Shown here in pieces: positions 1,480-59,470 of a DNA stretch of 64,000 bases. The notes below the pieces were generated by a model, which worked only from the letters and a program-made list of their open reading frames with translations, was not told where the DNA came from and did not search any database. The first letter of the stretch is position 1. Each line of letters opens with the position of its first letter. Made by a program: the position numbers and the translations under genes. The stretch comes from Eubacteriales bacterium. GTDB taxonomy: Bacteria; Bacillota; Clostridia; Oscillospirales; UMGS1783. The stretch is from positions 21,233-85,232 of the forward strand of contig JAZQIZ010000001.1 of the NCBI GenBank assembly GCA_045541395.1, written 5' to 3'.

Positions 1480-2070
1480 TTACCAGGAAAATCTCCTGTT
1501 CCATTCTATTTGCTCGGGGGTAAGCTCTTTAACTGTTTTGTTTACAATAAGCTCAGGGCAACTTTTTGTTTTAATTTGCTGTTCATTAACCTGCGCCCAG
1601 AAACTGCCGTCAATATCCCCGTTGTAAACAGTTTGGGGCAGGGAAACGGTGTTGAATAAGGAGCGTCTGCAAACAAGACCGTTATAGCCGTTTTTGCCCG
1701 TAGATTGTCCGTTAATTCTTACGTCCGGAAGCAATATCTGTTTTTTATCTGTAATATCATCAAGCTTTTCAAAAAAGTTAATGTCAACAGTATTTCCGTC
1801 CTCAATTATAAAAATGATCGGATCATTTTCAGATTTGGTATCAATGTATTCAATAGCTTTTGTTATGGCAATTCGTTTACCTGTATCGTAACCCATAGGC
1901 AAAAATTTAAAATTCTTAAATTGCTCAACAAAATTATTCAGGTAATTATTTGTGCTGTTATCGCAAACAACAACGTTTATCCCCTCAATATCTTTTAAAC
2001 AGGCAAACGTGTGTGATTGAGCGTAATTAATATCTTTAATTAAGTGAATAACAAAAATCTCATTTTGCAT
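1480..2070 (-). CDS. Hypothetical protein, 196 aa, weak GT-A (glycosyltransferase-2-like) pattern
   Basis: Clean ORF with SD (GGGAGAtgataatATG). VVVCDNSTNN and IIFIIEDGN resemble the nucleotide-sugar/DxD regions of GT-A folds. No confident family assignment. Confidence 0.4.
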   Translation of the reverse strand: MQNEIFVIHLIKDINYAQSHTFACLKDIEGINVVVCDNSTNNYLNNFVEQFKNFKFLPMGYDTGKRIAITKAIEYIDTKSENDPIIFIIEDGNTVDINFFEKLDDITDKKQILLPDVRINGQSTGKNGYNGLVCRRSLFNTVSLPQTVYNGDIDGSFWAQVNEQQIKTKSCPELIVNKTVKELTPEQIEWNRRFSW

Positions 2071-9671: not shown

Positions 9672-9820
9672 TAACACGTAATTCACAGGGTAACCGTTCT
9701 TTCACAAGAGAATATGTATGTGTTTTAATTTTCGGGCTTCCTACTTACCTCGAATTTTAAAACTGCTTTCTCGAAATCTCGGTTACTAAATAGAACTGAT
9801 ATTAACAGGAGGAAATTACA

Positions 9821-10897
9821 ATGAAAAAGGCATTAGCTATTTTACTTGCTCTCCTTATGGTTCTCGCAGTTGTTGCTGGTTGCGGCGCTAAGGAAGAACC
9901 CAAGGATGAACCCGCTACTGATGAACCCGCTGGCGAAGATGAACCCGCTGGTGAAGATGATGCAGCTGCTGGCAAGCAGATCGCTGTTTGCATGGGCTCT
10001 ATCAACCATCCCGTACACAGAATCGTTCAGATGGGCTTCGTTCTGAAGGCTGAAGAACTCGGTATGGAAGGCGTTATTTCCGGTCTTGATGAAGGTTCCA
10101 TCCAGGAACTTATCGCTAAGTGGGAATCCGCAGTTACCAACGGCGCTGAAGGCGTTCTCGTTTGGACTGGCGACGACTCTTGCTACGATATGATGAAGGG
10201 CATGAAGGAAATGGGCGTTTATACTACCGTTCCTCACTTCGTTCATAACTATGAAGACACCAAGGACTTCATCGACAAGAACATCTCCTGCCTCGCAGCT
10301 ACTTATGGTGCTGAAGCAGCTCAGTTCGTAGTTGATAAGCTTACTGAAAAGGGCATCACTGAAGGTACTATCGGTATCACCCAGAATGGTCCTAACGTAA
10401 CTGAAAACGCAGCTAACGACGGCTTCCGTTCCAAGATGGCTGAAATCGCTCCTAACTTCAAGCTCGCTGACACCGTTATGGAAGGTCCCGAAATTACTGA
10501 AGCTACCAACAAGGTTACTTCCGTTATCCAGGCTAACGAAGCTGATATCGTAGCTGGTTTTGGTACTACCGGTGGTTCTCCCCAGTCTTGGGCAGCTGCT
10601 ATGGAAAACACCAAGAAGACCGACCTCGTAGTTGTAGGTATGGACTATACTGAACTTAACGTTAACCTCGTTAAGGACGGCAAGATCTCTGCAGTAGTTT
10701 GCCAGCCCCTGTTCCCCGAAGCTCAGGATTGCGCTCAGGCTCTCTATGATCTGTTCAATGGCGAAGTATTCAACGGTTCCGCTGATACTTGGTTCACCGA
10801 ACTCCCCGCTCCTCTCGCTTATGTTGGCGGCGAAGGCGTTAACGACATCAATTCTTATCAGGCTATCATCGATCAGGTTGCTGAATACTTCGCATAA
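9821..10897 (+). CDS. Sugar ABC transporter substrate-binding lipoprotein (RbsB/PBP type I-like)
   Basis: Signal peptide with lipobox VVAGC, acidic Pro-rich linker (DEPAGE repeats), periplasmic-binding-protein fold pattern. SD AGGAGG. Confidence 0.85.
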   Translation: MKKALAILLALLMVLAVVAGCGAKEEPKDEPATDEPAGEDEPAGEDDAAAGKQIAVCMGSINHPVHRIVQMGFVLKAEELGMEGVISGLDEGSIQELIAKWESAVTNGAEGVLVWTGDDSCYDMMKGMKEMGVYTTVPHFVHNYEDTKDFIDKNISCLAATYGAEAAQFVVDKLTEKGITEGTIGITQNGPNVTENAANDGFRSKMAEIAPNFKLADTVMEGPEITEATNKVTSVIQANEADIVAGFGTTGGSPQSWAAAMENTKKTDLVVVGMDYTELNVNLVKDGKISAVVCQPLFPEAQDCAQALYDLFNGEVFNGSADTWFTELPAPLAYVGGEGVNDINSYQAIIDQVAEYFA

Positions 10898-11155: not shown

Positions 11156-12706
11156 ATGGGAGAGTATGCACTGGAAGTCAACAATATCACTAAGGTGTTC
11201 CCCGGCGTTATAGCTAACGATAACGTTAGCCTCAACGTTAAAAAGGGCGAGATCATGGGCCTTATCGGCGAAAACGGTGCCGGTAAATCCACGATATTGA
11301 AGATTATCAATGGTATCTATCCCGCAGGCAGCTATGAGGGTGAAATTAAGGTTAACGGCGAAGTTGTTCAGCCCAAATCCCCCCAGGATGCCGCTAAGTT
11401 AGGTATCGGTTTCGTTGCCCAGGAAGTAAGCGTTTTCAAGTTTCAGTCTGTTGCTGAAAACATTTACATGGGTGACCTCACTCTTGGCAAGAAGAGCATT
11501 TGGGTAAGCCAGGCAGCCCTCAGAAAGAGAGCAAAAGAGCTTATCGATGATCTTCAGCTTGACATTGATATTAACATGGATACCAGAAGAATGTCTATCG
11601 GTCAGCAGCAGATGCTGATGATCTGTAAGGCTCTTTCCTGCAATCCTAAGGTTCTTATCCTTGACGAGCCTACCACTTCTCTTTCCGAACGTGACGTTCA
11701 GAATCTTTTCCGCGTTGTTCGTCGTCTTAGAGACAACGGTACTGCTATTATCTTCGTAACTCATAAGATGGCAGAAATTATGGAACTTACCGACAGAGTT
11801 ACCGTTCTTCGTGACGGTAAGAGAATCACTGAATTCTCCAGAGAAGATTATGATCAGGACAAGATCATTGCTGCTATGATCGGTCGTGAAGTTACCAACC
11901 TCTATCCTAAGCGTGAAGGTATTGTATTCGGTGAAGAAGTTCTTTCTGTTCAGAACCTTACCGTTGACCATCCCTACCTCTTAGGCAGAAACCTCGTTGA
12001 AGATATTTCCTTCAGCGTAAGAGCAGGCGAAGTTTTAGGTTTCGCAGGCCTCGTAGGTGCCGGCAGAACCGAAACTCTTTCTGCTATTTACGGTATGTAT
12101 AAGATTAAGTCCGGTAAGATCTTTATTAACGGTAAAGAAACCAAGATCAAGAATCCTACCGACGCTAATAAAAAGGGTATCTCCATGGTTACTGAAGACA
12201 GAAAGAAATATGGTCTTCTTTTCTCCTGGAATATTCTCAGAAATATCACCATTACCAACCTTAATGCGCTCCGCATAGGTAAAACTCCCTTTATCAATGA
12301 AAAGAAGGAAGCAGAACGTGCTGAATACTATTTCAAGACAATGAGAGTTAAGGCTCCTAAGATGCGCGTACTCGTTGGTACTTTGTCCGGTGGTAACCAG
12401 CAGAAGGTTGTTATTGCTCGTTCCTTCAATACCGAACCTAAGATCCTTATCCTTGACGAACCTACCAAGGGTATCGACGTTGGTTCCAAGAACGAAATTT
12501 ATCAGCTTATTAATGAGTTTGCTGCTCAGGGTATTGCTGTAGTTATGATTTCTTCCGAACTCCCCGAACTTCTGAACATGTGCGATAGATTCGTAGTTAT
12601 GGCAGAAGGCAGAATCGTTGGTGAGCTTTCCAAGGAAGAAGCTAATGAAGTCAGCGTAATGAAGCTTGCTACTACTACCACCAAAAAAGTAGCAGCAGCT
12701 GAATAA
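11156..12706 (+). CDS. Sugar ABC transporter ATP-binding protein (duplicated ABC domains, RbsA/MglA-like)
   Basis: 516 aa. Walker A GENGAGKST, signatures MSIGQQQ and LSGGNQQK, two Walker B motifs (LILDEPT). Confidence 0.9.
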   Translation: MGEYALEVNNITKVFPGVIANDNVSLNVKKGEIMGLIGENGAGKSTILKIINGIYPAGSYEGEIKVNGEVVQPKSPQDAAKLGIGFVAQEVSVFKFQSVAENIYMGDLTLGKKSIWVSQAALRKRAKELIDDLQLDIDINMDTRRMSIGQQQMLMICKALSCNPKVLILDEPTTSLSERDVQNLFRVVRRLRDNGTAIIFVTHKMAEIMELTDRVTVLRDGKRITEFSREDYDQDKIIAAMIGREVTNLYPKREGIVFGEEVLSVQNLTVDHPYLLGRNLVEDISFSVRAGEVLGFAGLVGAGRTETLSAIYGMYKIKSGKIFINGKETKIKNPTDANKKGISMVTEDRKKYGLLFSWNILRNITITNLNALRIGKTPFINEKKEAERAEYYFKTMRVKAPKMRVLVGTLSGGNQQKVVIARSFNTEPKILILDEPTKGIDVGSKNEIYQLINEFAAQGIAVVMISSELPELLNMCDRFVVMAEGRIVGELSKEEANEVSVMKLATTTTKKVAAAE

Positions 12707-27578: not shown

Positions 27579-27654
27579 GGAAGCTTAGCTCAGCTGGGAG
27601 AGCATCTGCCTTACAAGCAGAGGGTCACAGGTTCGAGCCCTGTAGTTTCCACCA
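27579..27654 (+). tRNA. tRNA-Val(TAC)
   Basis: 76-nt cloverleaf. Acceptor GGAAGCT/AGTTTCC, anticodon loop CTTACAA, T loop GGTTCGAGCC, encoded CCA. Confidence 0.95.
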
Positions 27655-27659
27655 AGTAT

Positions 27660-27736
27660 GGCTCCGTAGTTCAGTTGGTTAGAACGCCGCCCTGTCACGG
27701 CGGAGGTCGAGGGTTCGAGTCCCTTCGGAGTCGCCA
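27660..27736 (+). tRNA. tRNA-Asp(GTC)
   Basis: 77 nt. Anticodon loop CTGTCAC, GGTTCGAGTCC, encoded CCA. Confidence 0.95.
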
Positions 27737-27768
27737 ATTCATCCTCAAAGCGGGGATGCAATGCCCAC

Positions 27769-27844
<76 letters not shown>

Positions 27845-27848
27845 ATCT

Positions 27849-27924
27849 GCGGAATTACCTCATCTGGTAGAGCGCCACCTTGCCAAGGTGGAGGTAGCGA
27901 GTTCGAGCCTCGTATTCCGCCCCA
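27849..27924 (+). tRNA. tRNA-Gly(GCC)
   Basis: 76 nt. Anticodon stem CCACC/GGTGG with loop TTGCCAA, AGTTCGAGCC, encoded CCA. Confidence 0.9.
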
Positions 27925-27957
27925 GCGCCCACGGTAAAACGTGAGCGCGTTTTATTC

Positions 27958-28032
27958 GGCGCCATAGCCAAGTGGTAAGGCAAAGGTCTGCAAAACCTCT
28001 ATGCCCCGGTTCAAATCCGGGTGGCGCCTCCA
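27958..28032 (+). tRNA. tRNA-Cys(GCA)
   Basis: 75 nt. Acceptor GGCGCCA/TGGCGCC, anticodon loop CTGCAAA, GGTTCAAATCC, encoded CCA. Confidence 0.95.
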
Positions 28033-28036
28033 GAAA

Positions 28037-28068
28037 AAAGTCCTGTTCGAAAGAACAGGACTTTTTTC
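28037..28068 (+). terminator. tRNA operon terminator
   Basis: agtcctgttc (28039-28048) pairs with gaacaggact (28053-28062), followed by T6. Confidence 0.9.
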
Positions 28069-28072
28069 AACT

Positions 28073-28236
28073 AAATCCACCCTAACGGGTGGGTGAAATA
28101 TTGCTTCGCAATGTGAAATTCTCGCTTCGCTCGAGTGAAATCGCTGCGGCGGTGGGTGGATTTAATTTCACATTTTGCGAAAGCAAAATATTTCATAATC
28201 CGAAGGATTATTTCATATCGCATAGCGATATTTCAT
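28073..28236. repeat. Divergent array of heptamer boxes (GTGAAAT x3, then ATTTCAY x4) interleaved with mini-hairpins
   Basis: Boxes at 28093, 28113 and 28135 in one orientation, and at 28165, 28190, 28210 and 28230 in the other. Hairpins at 28077-92, 28100-12, 28142-51, 28172-89, 28197-209 and 28217-29. See finding. Confidence 0.8.
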
Positions 28237-28254
28237 TACATACAACGCTCCGCA

Positions 28255-32123: not shown

Positions 32124-33410
32124 TTATCTAACGGGAACAAGCTTTTCCTTGCCGCCCATATAGGGGCGAAGAGCAACAGGAATATTAACAGAGCCGTCAT
32201 CATTAAGGTTGTTTTCCAAAAATGCAATAAGCATTCTGGGAGGAGCAACAACGGTGTTGTTAAGAGTGTGAGCAAGATACTTGCCGTCCTTACCGTTAAC
32301 TCTTATTTTAAGTCTTCTTGCCTGTGCATCACCAAGGTTGGAGCAGCTGCCTATCTCAAAATATTTCTGCTGTCTGGGAGACCAAGCCTCAACGTCAACC
32401 GATTTAACCTTAAGGTCGGCCAGGTCACCGGAGCAGCATTCTAATGTTCTTACGGGAATATCCATAGAACGGAACAGATCAACAGTGTTCTGCCAAAGCT
32501 TATCATACCACATCATGCTGTCTTCAGGCTTGCATACAACTATCATTTCCTGCTTTTCAAACTGATGTATCCTGTATACGCCGCGTTCTTCAATACCGTG
32601 AGCACCTTTTTCCTTTCTGAAGCAGGGAGAATAGCTGGTAAGAGTGTGGGGAAGCTGTTCTTCAGGAATAATAGTATCTATAAATTTGCCGATCATAGAA
32701 TGTTCGCTGGTGCCTATAAGATAAAGGTCTTCTCCCTCTATTTTATACATCATAGCTTCCATTTCTGCAAAGCTCATAACACCGGTAACAACCTCGCTTC
32801 TGATCATAAAGGGAGGAATGCAGTAGGTAAAACCTCTATCGATCATAAAGTCACGGGCATAGGAAATAACTGCAGAATGAAGTCTTGCAATATCACCCAT
32901 AAGGTAGTAGAAGCCGTTGCCTGCAACCTTTCTTGCACTGTCAAGGTCAATGCCGTTAAAGCGCTCCATGATTTCGGTATGATATGGAATTTCAAATTCG
33001 GGGATAACAGGTTCGCCGTAACGCTGAACTTCAACGTTTTCGCTGTCATCTTTACCGATAGGTACGCTGGGATCGATTATCTGAGGAATAATAAGCATTA
33101 TTCTTTTAATTTTTTCTTCCAACTCAGCTTCCAGTACTTCAGCTTCCGCCAGCTCTTGGGATTGAGCAGTAACCTGCGCCTTAACAGCCTCAGCTTCTTC
33201 TTTTTGGCCCTTAGCCATCAGGCCGCCTATCTGCTTGGAAAGCTTATTGCGGGATGCGCGCAGTCCGTCTGCCTTCTGCTGAATTTCTCTGCGCTGTTTA
33301 TCAAGCTCAATTACTTCATCTACAAGAGGAAGCTTCTGATCCTGAAATTTGTTTTTAATGTTCTGTTTTACAATGTCGGGATTTTCTCTTAAAAATCTTA
33401 TGTCTAACAT
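32124..33410 (-). CDS. serS: Serine--tRNA ligase
   Basis: 428 aa. N-terminal coiled-coil tRNA-binding arm and class II motifs (FRKE..G, GTSE, RVHQF-like YRIHQFEKQE). Confidence 0.95.
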   Translation of the reverse strand: MLDIRFLRENPDIVKQNIKNKFQDQKLPLVDEVIELDKQRREIQQKADGLRASRNKLSKQIGGLMAKGQKEEAEAVKAQVTAQSQELAEAEVLEAELEEKIKRIMLIIPQIIDPSVPIGKDDSENVEVQRYGEPVIPEFEIPYHTEIMERFNGIDLDSARKVAGNGFYYLMGDIARLHSAVISYARDFMIDRGFTYCIPPFMIRSEVVTGVMSFAEMEAMMYKIEGEDLYLIGTSEHSMIGKFIDTIIPEEQLPHTLTSYSPCFRKEKGAHGIEERGVYRIHQFEKQEMIVVCKPEDSMMWYDKLWQNTVDLFRSMDIPVRTLECCSGDLADLKVKSVDVEAWSPRQQKYFEIGSCSNLGDAQARRLKIRVNGKDGKYLAHTLNNTVVAPPRMLIAFLENNLNDDGSVNIPVALRPYMGGKEKLVPVR

Positions 33411-33660
33411 TGCCCTTCTCCTTTATGTGTTTAATAATATTTAAATAAAAAAGGACCATTTCACCCCTGTGTTTGGGACGAAATGCTCCGCGTTGCCACC
33501 CAATTTGACAGTAAAACTGCCCGCTCTTAGTAATTTCAGGCTTACAAAACCTACGGCTCCGAAAGCGGAACGCCTGTTCTTTGTTATCGGCTTTCACCAA
33601 CCGCCGACTCTCTGCAAACTTAAAACAAACTTATTTTTCTTCAACGCCGTATTATATTGT
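33411..33660 (-). promoter_or_regulatory. T-box leader (tRNA-sensing riboswitch) of serS
   Basis: The minus strand shows AGAGAG and GGTGAAAG stem-I elements. The T-box sequence AATTGGGTGGCAACGCGG is the complement of 33486-33503. The terminator is GGAGCATTTCGTCCC/GGGGTGAAATGGTCC followed by T6 (33447-33489). Confidence 0.85.
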
Positions 33661-53156: not shown

Positions 53157-54761
53157 TTAGGCCTTTTTCTTGGATATCTTACCAATAATAAAGAGAACCA
53201 GAACCATAACAACTATCATAATAGGAAGGGCAATAAGCCAGTTCTGTACGAAAGCCGCTAAAATGTAACCAACAGCGGAAACGCCTGCAACTAACAGTGC
53301 GTAAGGAAGCTGAGTGGAAACGTGGTTCAAGTGGTTGCACTGAGCACCGGTAGACGCCATAATCGTGGTGTCGGAAATAGGTGAGCAGTGGTCGCCGCAA
53401 ACTGCGCCTGCAAGGCAAGCGGATACTGCAATAACAAGAAGTTCGCCTTCAAAGCCTGCATTAACAACAATAGGAATAAGAATACCGAAGGTACCCCAAG
53501 ATGTGCCGGTTGCAAAGGAAAGGCCAATAGCAATGAGGAATATAACTGCAGGTAAGAACAGCTTAAGTGTTTCTGCATTTGCAAGTAAGCTTTCAACAAA
53601 TACGTCAGCACCGAGCAAGCCGGTCATTGTGCAAAGAGTCCATGCGAAGGTAAGAATAAGAATGGCGGGAACCATAGACTTAAAGCCTTCGGGAATAGCT
53701 TCCATACACTGCTTAAAGGTAAGTATTCTGCGGCACATATAGTAAATTATCACAAATATGAGGGCAAGAATAGAACCTAAAGGCAAACCTAAAGTAGCAT
53801 CGCAATCACCAAACGCGGTAATAAGATCAACACCGCCAAAGAATCCGCCGGTGTAAAGCATACCAACAACGCAAAGAACAATAAGAACAACTATGGGGAG
53901 AATAAGGTCAATAACTTTACCCTTGGGGTTGCTTTCTTCAACTTCTGCATTAGCATAAGGTCTGTCGGGAGTAGTGTAAATATCGCCGTTTTCAGCATTG
54001 TCTTCGTGCTTCTTCATGGGGCCGAAGTCAACCTTCATAACAGCAATAGCTATCATCATTACAATAGTAAGTAAAGAGTAGAAGTTATAAGGAATAGCCT
54101 TAATGAAAAGCTCAATACCGTTGTAGCCTTCAACAACACCTGCTACAGCAGCAGCCCAGGAAGAAACGGGGGCTATCATACAAACAGGAGCAGCGGTAGC
54201 GTCAATTATGTAAGCAAGCTTTGCGCGGGAAACCTTCTGCTTATCGGTTACAGGACGCATAACAGAACCTACTGTAAGGCAGTTAAAATAGTCGTCAACA
54301 AAGATAAGGCAGCCTAAAGCGGTGGTAGCGAGCATAGCGCCGGTACGGGAGTTGATCTTCTTAGCAGCCCAGTTACCGTATGCAGCGGAACCGCCTGCAC
54401 GGTTAATAAGAATAACAATAGCGCCTAAGGTTACAAGGAAAACAAGAATACCAACGTTACCTGCATCGGCAAGAGAACCTATAAAGCCGGTGTTTACAAG
54501 GCCGTAATAGGTGTTTTCCAGATTAAAGTTGCCGTAGAAAAGAGCGCCTGCCAAAATACCAACGAACAGGGAAGAATAAACTTCCTTGGTGATAAGAGCA
54601 AGAGCAATGGCGATTACAGGGGGTAAAAGAGCCCAACCTGTTGCATACAGATCGCTCTGGTAATCTTCGCTGCCGAAATCAGCTGCGCTTGCAGCTACAA
54701 CACACAGAGAAGCAACAACCAATACAACCATAAGTATGCGGAAAAACTTCTGCTTTGTCAT
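53157..54761 (-). CDS. NhaC-family Na+/H+ antiporter-type transporter (probable lysine-related transporter, given the L-box)
   Basis: 534 aa, ~12 TM segments, NhaC C-terminal pattern. Preceded by a lysine riboswitch. Confidence 0.8.
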   Translation of the reverse strand: MTKQKFFRILMVVLVVASLCVVAASAADFGSEDYQSDLYATGWALLPPVIAIALALITKEVYSSLFVGILAGALFYGNFNLENTYYGLVNTGFIGSLADAGNVGILVFLVTLGAIVILINRAGGSAAYGNWAAKKINSRTGAMLATTALGCLIFVDDYFNCLTVGSVMRPVTDKQKVSRAKLAYIIDATAAPVCMIAPVSSWAAAVAGVVEGYNGIELFIKAIPYNFYSLLTIVMMIAIAVMKVDFGPMKKHEDNAENGDIYTTPDRPYANAEVEESNPKGKVIDLILPIVVLIVLCVVGMLYTGGFFGGVDLITAFGDCDATLGLPLGSILALIFVIIYYMCRRILTFKQCMEAIPEGFKSMVPAILILTFAWTLCTMTGLLGADVFVESLLANAETLKLFLPAVIFLIAIGLSFATGTSWGTFGILIPIVVNAGFEGELLVIAVSACLAGAVCGDHCSPISDTTIMASTGAQCNHLNHVSTQLPYALLVAGVSAVGYILAAFVQNWLIALPIMIVVMVLVLFIIGKISKKKA

Positions 54762-54773
54762 ATTAATCCTCCT

Positions 54774-54992
54774 AAAATAAAATTCGTGAGATGTTATGGA
54801 TACACCTCACGAATATATATCATGATAGCTCTCCACATAAATGTGACAGTATACTGCATATTCTGCAATATCCCAGCGGTAAAAATAACAGGCTTTAAAT
54901 TACCGCTTCGGCAAATACTCCTTTCATATGCCACAATGCCCGTATATAAGACATATTACTTATAGTATCCGCGCCTCTACCCATAGTTCATC
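54774..54992 (-). promoter_or_regulatory. Lysine riboswitch (L-box) with intrinsic terminator
   Basis: The minus strand reads GGGTAGAGGCGCGGAT...AAGTA...GAAAGGAG...TTGCCGAAGCGG...CCGCTGGG...ACTGTCAC...TGGAGAGCTATC. The terminator follows: TTCGTGAGGTG/CATCTCACGAA plus TTTTATTTT. Confidence 0.85.
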
Positions 54993-55015
54993 TCAGAACT
55001 TATAATATTTAGTTT

Positions 55016-55044
55016 ATAATAACTTAATTTAAGTGAAAAAGCAA
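55016..55044 (-). promoter_or_regulatory. Probable promoter of the L-box-nhaC unit
   Basis: Minus strand: TTGCTT (55039-55044), 17-nt spacer, TATTAT (55016-55021). The -35 and spacer lie inside the 53-bp repeat. Confidence 0.5.
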
Positions 55045-55070
55045 TAGATTTATTAATTTTTTTTGAATTT
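55018..55070. repeat. 53-bp direct repeat, copy A
   Basis: aataacttaatttaagtgaaaaagcaatagatttattaattttttttgaattt, identical to 57594-57646. Confidence 0.95.
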
Positions 55071-55086
55071 ATTCGCCTTTTTTCGC

Positions 55087-55119
55087 AAAAAAAGAGGCTG
55101 TATTATTTGATACAGCCTC
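55087..55119 (-). terminator. GH31 gene terminator
   Basis: gaggctgtat pairs with atacagcctc. The minus strand is followed by T7. Confidence 0.85.
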
Positions 55120-55132
55120 CGCAAAGTAAAGG

Positions 55133-57517
55133 TTATATAATATTAATTTTTATAGGCTCTCCGGTGCTGTCGGGAATTATTCTCAGCCCGTCGTCTTCCA
55201 ATGCTGCTGCGCCGCCGCTTATTCCGTCTATTTTACTTATGCCGTAAATCGTTGCTGTCCAGTTTTTGTTTTCGGAGTCTATGTTAATAGTAAGTACATT
55301 TTCATTCATATTGACAGCTAAATTAGCCACAAGGTTTTGTTCCTTGTTGTATACTTGAATTTCCTTACTCATTCCGTTTTCAAATCCGAAAAGCTCGTAG
55401 GTTATACCGTCAACATAATTATATTCGGTGGTTGAATCTATGGCGCCTTTAGCTATAACAGATCCGGGTTTTATCAGCATCGGTAAATTTATATAATCGT
55501 AGGTTCTTTCATACCAATGCCCGCCTGCAAAGCTTTCTTTATCTATATAATTTATCCAGTTACCGCCTTCGGGAACGTAGAAATCTACACTGCCATCCTC
55601 GCTGAATACGGGGGCAACAAGAATGCTGTCCCCCAGCATATATTGTCTGTCAAGGCACAAGCAGTTTCGGTCGTTTGGAAATTCCAACATCATCGCTCTC
55701 ATTACTGGGTGTCCAAACTTTGCTGCTTCTACGGATTGGGAATATAAATAAGGCATTAGTGTGTTTTTCTGCTTTGTGAAATATTTAAGTACGTCACAGC
55801 TTTCCTCGTCAAATTCCCAGGGAACACGCCTGCTGCAGCTGGCGTGCAGTCGCCCGTGGGTGCAAAGGTGCCCGAATGCAACCCAGCGTTTGTATAGATC
55901 CGCTGTAGGTCTGGAAGCAAATCCGCTTATATCCTGCGCCCAAAAGCTAAACCCCGATTGGCAAAGTGATAATCCGCCTCTGAGCATCTGCGCCATGGAT
56001 GTGTATGCGCCGTGGTCATCGCCGCCCCAGGGCAGGGGGAATTTCTGCGATCCTACGGTACCGCTACGTTCAAGTAAGCAAGCTTCGCCCTTTTCTTTCT
56101 TAAGCATATTGTAAAGACATTCAATATATAAATAAGGATAAACGTTATGCATTGCTTCTGGGTCCGAGCCGTCATAGTAGGTAACGTCGGTGGGAATATG
56201 CTCTGCAAAATCCGCTACTATGGCGTCAACCCCTAAACGTATAACCGTTGCAACTTGCTCAGCGTACCATTTTGAAGCTTCTGGGTTTGTGAAATCCACA
56301 ACTGCCATACCCGGCATCCAGTGGTCGGTCTGCCAAACACTTTTTCCGTCCTTGGTCTTTAAGAAATATCCCTTTTCCTTTCCTTCCTCAAACAAATCGG
56401 AAAGTTGGCTTACATAAGGGTTAAGCCAAACACAGGTGCGGATACCCTGCTTATGAATCCAATCCATGAGCTCTTTGGGATCGTAAAACGGCTCTGACCA
56501 TTTATCAAACTGCACTGCGGTAAAAGGCTCCATCCAGTCCGCATCAAAATGGAAAACCGAAAAGGGAATATCGTGCTCTTTCATACGGGTAATGGTCGCC
56601 TTTGCAAGGTCGTTGCCTACGTCTACGTTCCAGCAAGATGATAACCATAATCCGAAGGACCAGGAGGGCGGAACCTGTGAGCGACCGGTCATTGCCGTAT
56701 ATTTTGTCAGTACATCAAGGGGCTTTGGTCCGCCTATTACCATATATTCAAAGGTTTCCGCTTCTATACAGAAGGTTACATGCTCCACATCCATATGGCC
56801 TATGTCAAATTCAAGATATCTGCTGTCATTAACAAAAATGCCGTAGCCCTTACTGGAAAGGTAGAAAGGAATATTAGTATATGTTTCATCGGTAACCGTA
56901 ATGTTATCGCGGTTCCACATTTCAACTGTCTGTCCGTTTCTTACCAAAGGACCGAATCTTTCTCCAAGGCCGTATATGTACTCGCCAATTCCCAAATCAA
57001 GCATTTCCCGCAAATATCTGCCGTAAAAATGTGTATTTGGCTCGCGGTGGCGGGTGGTGGTCATACGGTCGGAATCTAAATTAATATCGGTTATATATGA
57101 TCCGCCGCCGTGACTTCCCGTAAGCAGTTTTCCGTCAAAGTAAAAATCAAACCCGAATTCATTCTTCTTTTGAATAACCACCCGCATTTTTCCGTTTATT
57201 ATTGTAAGGGCGTTTTCGTTATCCTCAACATCCAGTGGCAGATCTTCGCGCTCGGTTTTATATGGCGCGCCCTTTATATCACCACCCAAAAAATGAGAAA
57301 GCTTAACCGCAATAACATCCTTTGAAGGCGCGCTGAAAGTATATGTTAAGGTTACGGGAAAAAGATGCTCACTGTTCTTTTTAAGGTTAAAGGTAATAGC
57401 CTGTACTTCTACCGACTCAGGCTTTATCTTATAGCGGAGCATCTCTTTAGCTTCGTATATCTTTGCTCCGGTGGCATAGCCCCATTGCTGTTCGGAAAAA
57501 CGCTTCATTTTTGTCAA
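55133..57517 (-). CDS. Glycoside hydrolase family 31 (alpha-xylosidase/alpha-glucosidase, YicI-like)
   Basis: 794 aa. VDAIVADFAEHIP resembles the KTDFGE nucleophile block. PLPWGGDD, WLNPY. SD AGGAG. Confidence 0.85.
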   Translation of the reverse strand: MTKMKRFSEQQWGYATGAKIYEAKEMLRYKIKPESVEVQAITFNLKKNSEHLFPVTLTYTFSAPSKDVIAVKLSHFLGGDIKGAPYKTEREDLPLDVEDNENALTIINGKMRVVIQKKNEFGFDFYFDGKLLTGSHGGGSYITDINLDSDRMTTTRHREPNTHFYGRYLREMLDLGIGEYIYGLGERFGPLVRNGQTVEMWNRDNITVTDETYTNIPFYLSSKGYGIFVNDSRYLEFDIGHMDVEHVTFCIEAETFEYMVIGGPKPLDVLTKYTAMTGRSQVPPSWSFGLWLSSCWNVDVGNDLAKATITRMKEHDIPFSVFHFDADWMEPFTAVQFDKWSEPFYDPKELMDWIHKQGIRTCVWLNPYVSQLSDLFEEGKEKGYFLKTKDGKSVWQTDHWMPGMAVVDFTNPEASKWYAEQVATVIRLGVDAIVADFAEHIPTDVTYYDGSDPEAMHNVYPYLYIECLYNMLKKEKGEACLLERSGTVGSQKFPLPWGGDDHGAYTSMAQMLRGGLSLCQSGFSFWAQDISGFASRPTADLYKRWVAFGHLCTHGRLHASCSRRVPWEFDEESCDVLKYFTKQKNTLMPYLYSQSVEAAKFGHPVMRAMMLEFPNDRNCLCLDRQYMLGDSILVAPVFSEDGSVDFYVPEGGNWINYIDKESFAGGHWYERTYDYINLPMLIKPGSVIAKGAIDSTTEYNYVDGITYELFGFENGMSKEIQVYNKEQNLVANLAVNMNENVLTINIDSENKNWTATIYGISKIDGISGGAAALEDDGLRIIPDSTGEPIKINII

Positions 57518-57593
57518 CTCCTAAAATTAATACTTTTTCATAAATACAATTATAGCATACTTATTTTTTAATTCTATAAACATTTTCAGTTAC

Positions 57594-57646
57594 AATAACT
57601 TAATTTAAGTGAAAAAGCAATAGATTTATTAATTTTTTTTGAATTT
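57594..57646. repeat. 53-bp direct repeat, copy B (contains the ygiQ 3' end)
   Basis: Identical to 55018-55070. Nucleotides 57629-57646 encode KFKKN-stop of the radical SAM gene. Confidence 0.95.
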
Positions 57647-59470
57647 TAGCCTTGGATTTTGCCCTTTTTTGGCGGTTTTTGTGCCTTGTATCAGGCAACC
57701 CTTGCCGTTACCGATCAAATCGGTTCTGCCTGCCTTTATAAGCGCCTCTTTTACGGTCTCATAATTCTCAGGCTTATAGTACTGCAAAAGTGCCCTTTGC
57801 ATATTCTTTTCTTTTGGGGTCTTTGGTACGTACACCGACTTCATTGTTCTCGGGTCAACCTCCGTATAGTACATAACCGTAGAAAGGGTAGAAGGAGTTG
57901 GGTAAAAATCCTGAACCTGCTCTGGCTTATGCCCTGTGTTTTTAAGGTAAACCGCCAGATCAACGGCGTCTTGTAACGTACTGCCGGGGTGTGAGGACAT
58001 AAGATACGGAACCACAAACTGCTTAAGTCCAAGCTCATCATTTACCTGCTTATATTTTCTTAAAAATTCAAGGTAGACCTTATGCGGCGGCTTTCCCATC
58101 ACCTTCAGCACGTTATCGGAAATATGCTCAGGAGCAAGCTTTAGTTGACCGCTTATATGGTGTTTTGCAAGCTCCCTTATGAATCTGTTGTTTTTGTCAC
58201 ATAACAGATAATCAAATCTTATGCCTGAACGAACAAATACCTTTTTTACCTTCGGTAGCTCTCTCAGTTTCTTTAACAGAGCAGTGTAATCCGAATGGTC
58301 AGCAATTAAGTTTTTGCAGGGGGTGGGGAACAAACACTGTCGGTTTAAGCAAACGCCATCTTTAAGCTGCTTTTTACAGGCAGGCTGCCTGAAATTAGCG
58401 GTTGGACCGCCAACGTCGTTAATATAACCCTTAAAATCTTTATCTTTAGTAAGTTCAATTGCTTCATTTATAATTGATTCATGGCTTCGCGCCTGGATTA
58501 TTCTGCCTTGATGAAAATTTAGTGAACAGAATGAGCAACCGCCAAAACAGCCACGGGCGCTTTGAATGGAGAATTTAATTTCCTTAATAGCATCTACTCC
58601 CCCGAGTTTTTTGTAAGAAGAATGGATATCGCGCATATAAGGCAAGGAATAAACTCTGTCCATCTCCTCGGAGGAAAGAGGCTTTGCAGGCGGGTTTTGC
58701 ACCACGTAAAAATCCTCATAAGGTTCAACAAGCCTTTTTGCTGTAAACGGATCGGTATTTTTATTCTGTACCATAAAGCTTTCGGCATATTTAAGTTTAT
58801 TGTCTAATAATTCATTGTAAGAGGGAAGCAGTTGATAATCATAAATACTTTCTTTTTCCTTTGTTTTGTATACCGTTCCGTCTATAAATGTTATATCTTT
58901 GATCTCAAGTCCGCTGTCAAGAGCTTGGGCTACCTCCACAATGCTCTTTTCGCCCATTCCGTATAAAAGCAGATCAGCCTGAGAATCAAGAAGCACAGAA
59001 CGCTTCAGTTTATCTGACCAATAATCATAATGGGCAAGTCTTCTTAGGCTGGCCTCAATTCCGCCTATTATAATAGGGCTGTCCTTATAAACCTGCTTTA
59101 TAAGGTTGCAATAAACAATAGTTGCCCTGTCCGGACGTTTGCCGATTTTTCCGCCGGGAGTGTATGCATCAAGGCTTCTTTTCTTTTTTGCGGCAGTGTA
59201 ATGGTTGACCATAGAATCCATATTCCCTGCGCTAACCAGGAAACCGAGCCTTGGTTTGCCAAATAGGGTAATGCTGTTTTTGTCTTTCCAGTCAGGCTGA
59301 GAAATAATTCCCACCTTGTAGCCGAAAGATTCAAGGACTCTGCTTATAATTGCAGTGCCGAAAGAAGGATGATCCACATAAGCATCACCTGTAATATAGG
59401 CAAAATCAACCTCTTCCCAGCCTAAGCTTTTCATTTCATTGTAGGATATAGGCAGAAACCTCTTTGACAT
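57629..59470 (-). CDS. ygiQ: YgiQ-family (UPF0313) radical SAM protein
   Basis: 613 aa. The N-terminal domain pattern is [14 protein letters not shown], and the cluster motif is CFGGCSFCS. Confidence 0.9.

Follow-up and report, generated by a model that had tools for sequence, protein, structure and literature searches.

A GH31 alpha-xylosidase cassette, probably acquired from a sister species, between 53-bp direct repeats at the ygiQ-nhaC junction of a Clostridia genome

Background

Homology-facilitated and double illegitimate recombination during the uptake of foreign DNA have reportedly been described by de Vries and Wackernagel in 2002, by Prudhomme and co-workers in 2002 and by Hulter and Wackernagel in 2008, work summarised in PMC3240628. 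Here we compare with such events a locus in a 64,000-nt stretch of the genome of an Eubacteriales bacterium (GenBank assembly GCA_045541395.1, contig JAZQIZ010000001.1, positions 21,233 to 85,232 of the forward strand), hereafter the window, in which a predicted alpha-xylosidase gene of the GH31 family lies between ygiQ and a lysine riboswitch (L-box)-nhaC unit and is bracketed by perfect direct repeats of 53 bp. We consider it likely, with a probability of roughly 0.8, that this gene is a horizontally acquired, self-contained unit that was integrated by host recombination functions without any mobile-element enzyme. The window's species is denoted S1 and the sister species of contigs L081 and L084 is denoted S2, both being labels of this analysis.

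As in homology-facilitated illegitimate recombination, the locus presents a foreign segment free of element-encoded enzymes and with abrupt identity breaks (PMC3240628), an 8-nt microhomology at one joint, inside the 3-10-bp range typical of the illegitimate joints of that process (PMC3240628), and a short homology at the other end; moreover, the S2 allele with the same cassette shows the classical insertion together with a deletion. It departs from that process in that 53-57 bp of the recipient are duplicated in the window with no deletion of recipient DNA, in that the "homologous" side amounts to only 22 nt, and in being a natural interspecies case inferred from genomes and not from experiment. 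In experiments, incoming DNA that integrated in a circle-like manner has left the homology region duplicated instead of causing a deletion (PMC3240628), and ends-in gapped or Campbell-type integration yields, as here, an L-H-insert-H-R product with direct repeats of the homology region H (PMC3240628). Both copies in the window carry recipient information, as in ends-in integration with a gap, whereas one arm is a microhomology of 8 nt, there is no sign of a plasmid or circular vector and the hybrid repeats left by a simple crossover are absent. The gap-repair model is said to be that of Szostak and Orr-Weaver.

The arrangement also recalls the C-terminal displacement seen in Rhs and contact-dependent inhibition (CDI) loci and in the effector-immunity arrays of type VI secretion systems, where an incoming 3' gene end arrives with its cargo, the old 3' end is orphaned downstream and scars accumulate with successive transfers; homology-facilitated illegitimate recombination was put forward as the mechanism of this displacement (PMC5361080). 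Unlike in those loci, the cargo here is a metabolic enzyme and not a toxin-immunity pair, the orphan is 33 nt long and not a gene, and there is no evidence of selection for diversity of the tail. Small variable segments in bacterial genome alignments are likewise short, variable among strains and found at a fixed locus between core genes, 10-18% of them being flanked by direct repeats able to mediate deletion (PMC2884548). The present case differs from these in allowing a nucleotide-level reconstruction, across species, of where the segment came from, of which way it moved and of its two joints.

Insertion sequences and transposons too leave direct repeats of the target on both sides of the inserted segment; their duplications measure 2-14 bp, however, as against 53-57 bp in the window, and S2 holds the same cassette with no duplication at all. 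The first-pass annotation of the window had already pointed to this excess length and to the lack of a transposase, an integrase and terminal inverted repeats, and open reading frame (ORF), Pfam and inverted-repeat searches at the locus bore it out: there is no transposase within the cassette by ORFs and Pfam, no recombinase gene beside it (the Pfam matches of all neighbouring genes are to housekeeping families) and no inverted-repeat pair linking 55071-55100 with 57560-57593. The locus is unlike an integrase-dependent island in having no integrase in or next to the cassette and in the absence of the att-like repeat from the S2 filled alleles. It is unlike an integron cassette in carrying its own promoter element, TGCTATAAT, and a terminator-like hairpin, with no intI or array nearby; no attC was found at the cassette, judged from inverted repeats only.

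Results

The 53-mer AATAACTTAATTTAAGTGAAAAAGCAATAGATTTATTAATTTTTTTTGAATTT occurs in exactly two copies in the window, copy A at 55018-55070 and copy B at 57594-57646, with a period of 2576; no further match was found in the window when up to three mismatches were allowed (0 expected from 100 shuffles). The pattern search thus agreed with the first-pass annotation, and a repeat search lengthened the pair to 57 nt with one mismatch (55014-55070 versus 57590-57646). Both copies are read on the minus strand. Copy B supplies the final five codons and the stop of an intact ygiQ (KFKKN*), whose ORF (57629-59470, minus strand) ends inside it as had been described, and also 35 nt of intergenic sequence that is native and holds a duplicated -35 element, TTGCTT. 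Copy A holds an orphan 18 nt coding for KFKKN* together with the working promoter of the L-box/nhaC unit. Between the copies lies a single minus-strand unit consisting of a promoter, the GH31 alpha-xylosidase gene and a terminator; we refer to the 2523 bp from 55071 to 57593 (minus strand) as the cassette.

A protein (P0121) 99% identical to the GH31 protein of the window is encoded on three contigs from three sequencing runs (L084, L085 and L086), the gene lying between ygiQ and nhaC in each, and contig L088 is a fourth, partial case. In a profile of 100-nt steps against L084, the window is 66-89% identical in ygiQ, 98-100% identical from 57577 to 55078 and 63-92% identical over the L-box and nhaC; outside 57577-55078 the identity ranges overall from 42 to 92%, and the breakpoints are abrupt. 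The cassette differs from its S2 counterpart, of which the three copies are mutually identical, by 25 substitutions in 2523 bp with no insertion or deletion (99.01% identity). Nineteen of the 25 differences are in the coding sequence, 8 of them changing an amino acid and 11 being synonymous (about 1.8% synonymous divergence). Since the cassette is 99% identical and its flanks only about 66-92%, it moved between the species recently, long after S1 and S2 had split.

The segment next to copy A bears on the direction of this movement. The 15 nt at 55071-55085 (minus strand), CGAAAAAAGGCGAAT, code for RKKAN and extend the orphan ygiQ tail to 33 nt (55053-55085), so that the orphan reported in the first-pass annotation is indeed present but is 33 nt and not 18 nt long, the 15 extra nucleotides being of foreign type. 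They do not match the window's own ygiQ, which reads GGGCAAAATCCAAGGCTA at the corresponding place, and match the ygiQ tail of another species: they are identical to the orphan on L088 and agree with the L081 ygiQ tail at 14 of 15 positions. By this comparison, the 15 nt are a scar that dates from a previous integration, in the donor lineage, and came along with the cassette. As the window cassette carries an S2-type orphan tail, it descends from a filled S2-like allele that was scarred already, and the transfer went from an S2-like species to S1.

S2 itself is polymorphic, with L081 empty and L084, L085, L086 and L088 filled. L081 and L084, both of this one species, show 97.5% identity over the 9.8 kb upstream and 99.7% over the 1.2 kb downstream. 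Homology of the filled allele to the empty one ends inside ygiQ, at L084 position 9786, and is followed by a different ygiQ tail (...KKPFLQKNKQYVKKKKK*), a foreign spacer, the GH31 promoter, gene and terminator, and a 33-nt orphan of the native S2 ygiQ tail, CGAAAAAAG(A/G)CGAATAAATTCAAAAAAAATTAA (the L081 counterpart is AGAAAAAAGGCGAATAAATTC...). About 48 nt of the native ygiQ tail were replaced in this event and its last 33 nt were left as the orphan. The S2 allele shows the classical outcome of homology-facilitated illegitimate recombination: the crossover within ygiQ was homologous, and the joint that follows the terminator is illegitimate. A search of the S2 filled allele (L084) gave no direct repeat at its flanks above chance level, and the duplication is therefore specific to the integration event in the window and not a property of the cassette.

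In L084 (positions 9786-9916), and also in L085 and L086, the foreign ygiQ tail ending in KKPFLQKNKQYVKKKKK is accompanied by a spacer of 60 nt, which holds an inverted repeat of 19 nt (9851-9892). This stretch matched no other sequence retrieved, and the tail was found in none of the best 120 YgiQ matches; tail and spacer presumably come from a primary donor in which GH31 lay downstream of ygiQ, the spacer sequence tied to that donor being ATACAGTACGCCGATAACGGTGTCTTGTATTTACTTGCAATTATGAATATGGCGC. The palindromic motif TTTTTGC(A/G)AAAAAA occurs twice in the S2 filled alleles, in the foreign ygiQ tail (L084 9812-9835) and at the junction of the terminator and the orphan tail (12406-12429). It may be the microhomology of the first integration, or the T-run of the terminator may derive partly from a ygiQ tail.

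Between L081 and L084 the identity upstream of the cassette is a mosaic, 99.5-100% in the first 3.2 kb and then alternating in blocks of 90-99% (L084 3200-9785), with 92-95% in the 3' half of ygiQ beside the cassette and 99.7% downstream. To judge from this pattern, the cassette seems to spread within S2 together with tracts of recombination. Because the S2 alleles have no repeats, their presence/absence polymorphism does not stem from repeat-mediated excision, and the mosaic identity points to allelic exchange by ordinary homologous recombination.

When YgiQ was searched against a collection of 5.8 billion proteins, the one match at 100% was that of the window's own genome, and the closest homologs after it were 80%, 78% and 77% identical, on contigs L081, L082 and L083. 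All three contigs have nhaC about 300 nt after ygiQ and no GH31 gene. The gene order of L081 equals that of the window on both sides (GDSL lipase, citrate synthase, ygiQ, nhaC, metallophosphoesterase, NUDIX, AP endonuclease-2), the two being collinear except for GH31. Two further contigs found through NhaC, L087 and L089, are also empty. In all five empty lineages ygiQ is followed directly by the lysine riboswitch and nhaC, and the alignment places in each a single copy of the repeat region, homologous to that at the position of copy A. The comparison thus shows, as the ancestral state of the clade, ygiQ, about 90 nt of intergenic DNA with the L-box promoter, the lysine riboswitch and nhaC.

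The proposal of the first-pass annotation, that an ancestral junction of ygiQ and the L-box-nhaC promoter had been split by a GH31 cassette of about 2.5 kb, is upheld by these five lineages and the polymorphic sister species. The alignment with relatives that it had suggested was run and gave the empty sites; a two-copy arrangement in every relative was not seen, the five empty-site relatives carrying a single copy. A scan of genome contigs with YgiQ returned relatives of at most 70% identity, and at 0 of 80 loci did nhaC or GH31 adjoin ygiQ; on L034 there was only a distant nhaC homolog, about 3.6 kb off beyond the opposite end of ygiQ. When the window's YgiQ, NhaC and GH31 were looked up as exact proteins, no record was returned, and the protein collection searched held no second genome of S1, the next YgiQ being the one at 80% identity. 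The S1 empty junction is predicted to read GGCTAAAATTCAAAAAAAATTAATAAATCTATTGCTTTTTCACTTAAATTAAGTTATTATAAACTAAATATTATAAG.

Searches with GH31 and with the YgiQ tails found no ultimate source of the cassette; after the S2 copies, the next-best GH31 protein is 54% identical and its contig (L090) has no ygiQ or nhaC context. A megablast search with the cassette gave no plasmid or phage match, viral contigs contained no exact match to the cassette-terminator or repeat-region pattern, and scans of Joint Genome Institute (JGI) metagenomes with the junction pattern and with the cassette-terminator pattern gave no match. A phage or plasmid vehicle is therefore unsupported.

Both joints of the window cassette were located on the minus strand by comparison with S2. 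The right joint lies in a 22-nt block at 55049-55070, AAATTCAAAAAAAATTAATAAA, in the region of the ygiQ stop, which is identical in the window, L081 (S2) and L087; the sequence is of S2 type upstream of it and of S1 type downstream. The left joint is at 57590-57597, where the product reads TATTGTAA and both the recipient-like sequence (55014-55021) and the donor-like sequence (L084) read TATTATAA. It is thus an 8-nt microhomology with one A-to-G change, TATTATAA being the -10 box of the L-box promoter. Copy B is of S1 type as far as ...AAGTTATT, the cassette then continuing from TAACTGAAAAT, and TATTATAA is common to the recipient-like GTTATTATAAACT (copy A onward) and the donor-like GCTATTATAACTG (L084). 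The chance of an 8-nt match at a fixed register in AT-rich DNA is roughly 5e-5 by a rough estimate. The S1 filled joint sequences are AAGTTATTGTAACTGAAAATG (left) and GGCGAATAAATTCAAAAAAAATTAATAAATCTATTGC (right). On the recipient, the left joint falls 49-57 nt downstream of the right joint, that is, in reversed or "ends-in" order, and the stretch between the two has therefore been copied twice, giving the 53-bp duplication. At the 10 positions that distinguish S1 from S2 in nt 23-53 of the 53-mer, counted from the alignment, both copies are of S1 type (10/10).

The cassette gene extends from 55133 to 57508 on the minus strand (791 aa), within an ORF of 55133-57517, the likely start being the ATG at 57508 after AGGAG. 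Its product has the full GH31 Pfam set (PF13802, PF01055 and PF21365) and scores 892.7 bits against the NCBIfam alpha-xylosidase equivalog NF007940 (cutoff 606), a curated profile match by which we annotate it as an alpha-xylosidase of the GH31 family. No obvious signal peptide was seen in the protein. On the family assignment, the acquired enzyme is probably an intracellular alpha-xylosidase relevant to the use of xyloglucan oligosaccharides. Compared with the S2 copies, the gene has 19 nucleotide and 8 amino acid differences; the ratio of non-synonymous to synonymous divergence is roughly 0.24, and the gene is therefore under purifying selection. Composition was rejected as a transfer signal: the comparison with neighbouring genes proposed in the first-pass annotation gave a GC content of 44.3%, and 45.8% at third codon positions (GC3), neither of them distinctive.

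The expression signals ascribed earlier to this minus-strand unit (extended -10, Shine-Dalgarno sequence, coding sequence and terminator) were all recovered. The cassette's own extended -10, TGCTATAAT on the complement of 57549-57557, is conserved in the S2 cassette, and the terminator-like intrinsic hairpin at 55093-55120 (minus strand), with an 11-bp stem followed by a T7 run, is identical there. No other gene-sized ORF was found between the repeats, the remaining ORFs overlapping GH31 on the opposite strand. At copy B the duplicated -35 faces TATTGT, as can be read directly in the sequence and had been stated, and points into GH31 upstream of the cassette's own extended -10; to judge from this -10, the duplicated promoter is probably weakened.

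The 85-nt 5' non-coding region of the window cassette (57509-57593) holds 5 of the 25 cassette differences, or 5.9%, compared with about 1.8% at synonymous sites. One of them, the A-to-G change at 57593, coincides exactly with the left joint and converts the TATTAT of the duplicated -10 to TATTGT. The excess may stem from tuning of the promoter in its new host or from error-prone synthesis close to the joint.

The insertion leaves both neighbours complete. ygiQ (57629-59470, minus strand) encodes a radical SAM protein matching TIGR03904 with 874 bits. Copy A stands 30 nt upstream of the lysine riboswitch aptamer (RF00168; 54818-54987, minus strand; 104 bits against a gathering score of 30, model positions 1-182), which is followed by the gene of an NhaC-family transporter assigned by Pfam (nhaC, 53157-54761, minus strand) under its control. 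The promoter of this unit reads -35 TTGCTT (55039-55044), a 17-nt spacer and -10 TATTAT (55016-55021), in agreement with the first-pass annotation, which had called it the likely L-box/nhaC promoter. In each of the six relatives scanned (L081, L082, L083, L084, L087 and L089) the riboswitch keeps this position.

Throughout the clade (L081-L083, L087, L089 and L091) a lysine riboswitch lies upstream of an NhaC-family transporter gene (54761-55045 in the window), with the promoter at a constant distance as TTGCTT or TTGATT, 17 nt, and TATTAT, TATCAT or TATAAT. Only about 10 nt separate the ygiQ stop codon from the -35 downstream of it, and no ygiQ terminator is evident. The nucleotide identity of S1 and S2 is higher in nhaC (84-92%; window 53899-54783) than in ygiQ (66-89%; 57742-59441), and the GDSL lipase gene is alignable only in patches of 67-70%, so that divergence is uneven across the neighbourhood.

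Elsewhere in the window, two Gut-1 RNA matches (RF01706) stand head to head, 13 nt apart, at 28068-28146 (plus strand) and 28160-28238 (minus strand), just after a cluster of five tRNAs (27579-28029). L083 has a similar convergent pair at 1571-1663 (plus strand) and 1681-1757 (minus strand). Because of the Gut-1 RNA matches, of relatives such as Yeguia hominis (NhaC at most 73% identical) and of the fact that the sister contigs all come from metagenome assemblies, the host, a sparsely sampled Clostridia lineage, is probably of gut origin. Upstream of a 428-aa ORF on the minus strand (32124-33410) there is a T-box leader (33471-33653, minus strand) that scores 97 bits against a gathering score of 93.

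Discussion

Where the joints lie and what they consist of can be read off the sequences themselves, and the comparative data show two successive entries. The cassette first entered an S2-like species, where a foreign ygiQ 3' end with the spacer, GH31 and the terminator replaced about 48 nt of the native tail. A copy of this scarred allele later entered S1. The enzymatic route taken there we infer as follows: the donor segment bounded by TATTATAA and the 22-nt block would have acted as an "ends-in" substrate with a gap, filled from the recipient either by invasion of both ends of a linear donor fragment and repair synthesis or by two template switches in replication. The stretch between the joints would thereby have been copied twice from the recipient, giving L-H-cassette-H-R with both H copies of S1 type. 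No S2-type tract was found to run into the L-box or nhaC beyond the right joint, where the 22-nt identity compares with an anchor of about 100 bp or more in homology-facilitated recombination. The event thus seems closer to double illegitimate or short-homology recombination.

Several points weigh against this reconstruction. The 22 nt of identity at the right joint are short for RecA-dependent pairing, and the product has G at 57593 where both parental-type sequences have A, which calls for an extra mutation or an unsampled donor variant. The actual donor is not among the genomes sampled, since the window cassette is 1% off each S2 copy; the S1 empty site is derived from copy A and the sister lineages and not observed; and both junctions are known from an assembled contig and not from raw reads. 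The near-identity of the repeats does not add to these points: at about 1.8% divergence, roughly one difference is expected in 53-57 nt, and 0 were observed in 53 nt and 1 in 57 nt. Gene conversion or a very recent event was considered as an explanation for the repeat identity and rejected, the observed differences fitting the divergence of the cassette.

Second after the ends-in or template-switch reading we rank, as an unlikely alternative, a Campbell-type event in which a fragment, incoming or excised, with GH31 and the S2 repeat region was circularised and integrated by a single homologous crossover. Such a crossover with a circle duplicates the homology region by construction, the window and S2 are partially homologous over the whole 57 nt, and linear incoming DNA in E. 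coli is mostly recircularised and integrated in this form, with duplications of 109-950 bp (PMC3240628). The crossover should, however, leave hybrids, with copy B of S1 type on the left and S2 type on the right and copy A the reverse. The 10/10 S1-type positions in both copies would demand two extra steps of mismatch repair or gene conversion, both favouring S1, and outside the 22-nt block the homologous tract is identical at only 21 of 31 positions.

We attach very little weight to a site-specific mobile element in which the 53-mer would represent attL and attR and the recombinase would be encoded elsewhere. The perfect direct repeats bordering the cassette in the window and its presence at the same intergenic site in two species are what such an element would give, but the same-site insertion is explained by the flanking homology. 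The S2 filled alleles have no flanking direct repeat and their upstream joint is inside ygiQ, and the repeat is the recipient's own gene end and promoter, single in every empty relative. Neither in nor beside the cassette is there a recombinase, the flanks being collinear with L081.

An assembly artefact, with S2 cassette reads spliced into an S1 contig through shared k-mers, is just as improbable. The cassette is indeed 99% identical to that of another species and the right joint falls within a 22-nt block common to both. The left joint (AAGTTATT|GTAACTGAAAATG), however, shares 8 nt with S2, including a mismatch, a junction that no k-mer graph could make, and the 25 private differences from all S2 copies mean that the cassette was not built from those S2 reads. 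Moreover, the usual assemblers work with a final k of more than 22 nt, which the 22-nt overlap does not reach. The least credible explanation is that GH31 is ancestral here and that the relatives have lost it. A deletion between the repeats would give exactly the empty-site structure, but the loss would have had to occur separately in five lineages, the cassette shows 99% identity against about 66-92% in the flanks, and neither the foreign orphan ygiQ tail nor the repeat-free S2 filled allele is explicable by vertical inheritance.

With host-driven acquisition as the preferred reading, the future of the cassette in S1 can also be considered. A deletion between the copies would take out 2576 bp, the foreign 15-nt scar among them, and so bring back the ancestral junction; excision through the repeats, which follows logically from the sequence, would thus be possible in principle. 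A bolder scenario, which we hold to be improbable, would make the ygiQ end and the L-box promoter a shared landing pad, at which a transposase-free cassette circulates among gut Clostridia purely on host recombination, being excisable as a 2576-bp circle with one repeat and re-integrating into empty sites.

Conclusions

Taken on the alignments, an alpha-xylosidase cassette of a single gene has probably been passed serially between species at this locus, by illegitimate recombination and recombination at short homology. This is a known process and not a new kind of element, and the locus is a clear but ordinary case of transposase-free gene transfer. It provides an unusually legible natural record of one metabolic gene crossing species without mobile-element machinery, with both joints resolved to the nucleotide and the direction of transfer recorded by a 15-nt remnant of the donor ygiQ. 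In addition, two outcomes of the same cassette can be compared, an insertion with a deletion in one species and an insertion with a 53-bp duplication in the other. Long "target duplications" can hence come from joints in reversed order and should not be read as evidence for a novel transposition mechanism. For the organism, the event means that a gut Clostridia lineage gained a predicted alpha-xylosidase while ygiQ and the promoter of the lysine-riboswitch-controlled nhaC remained undisturbed.

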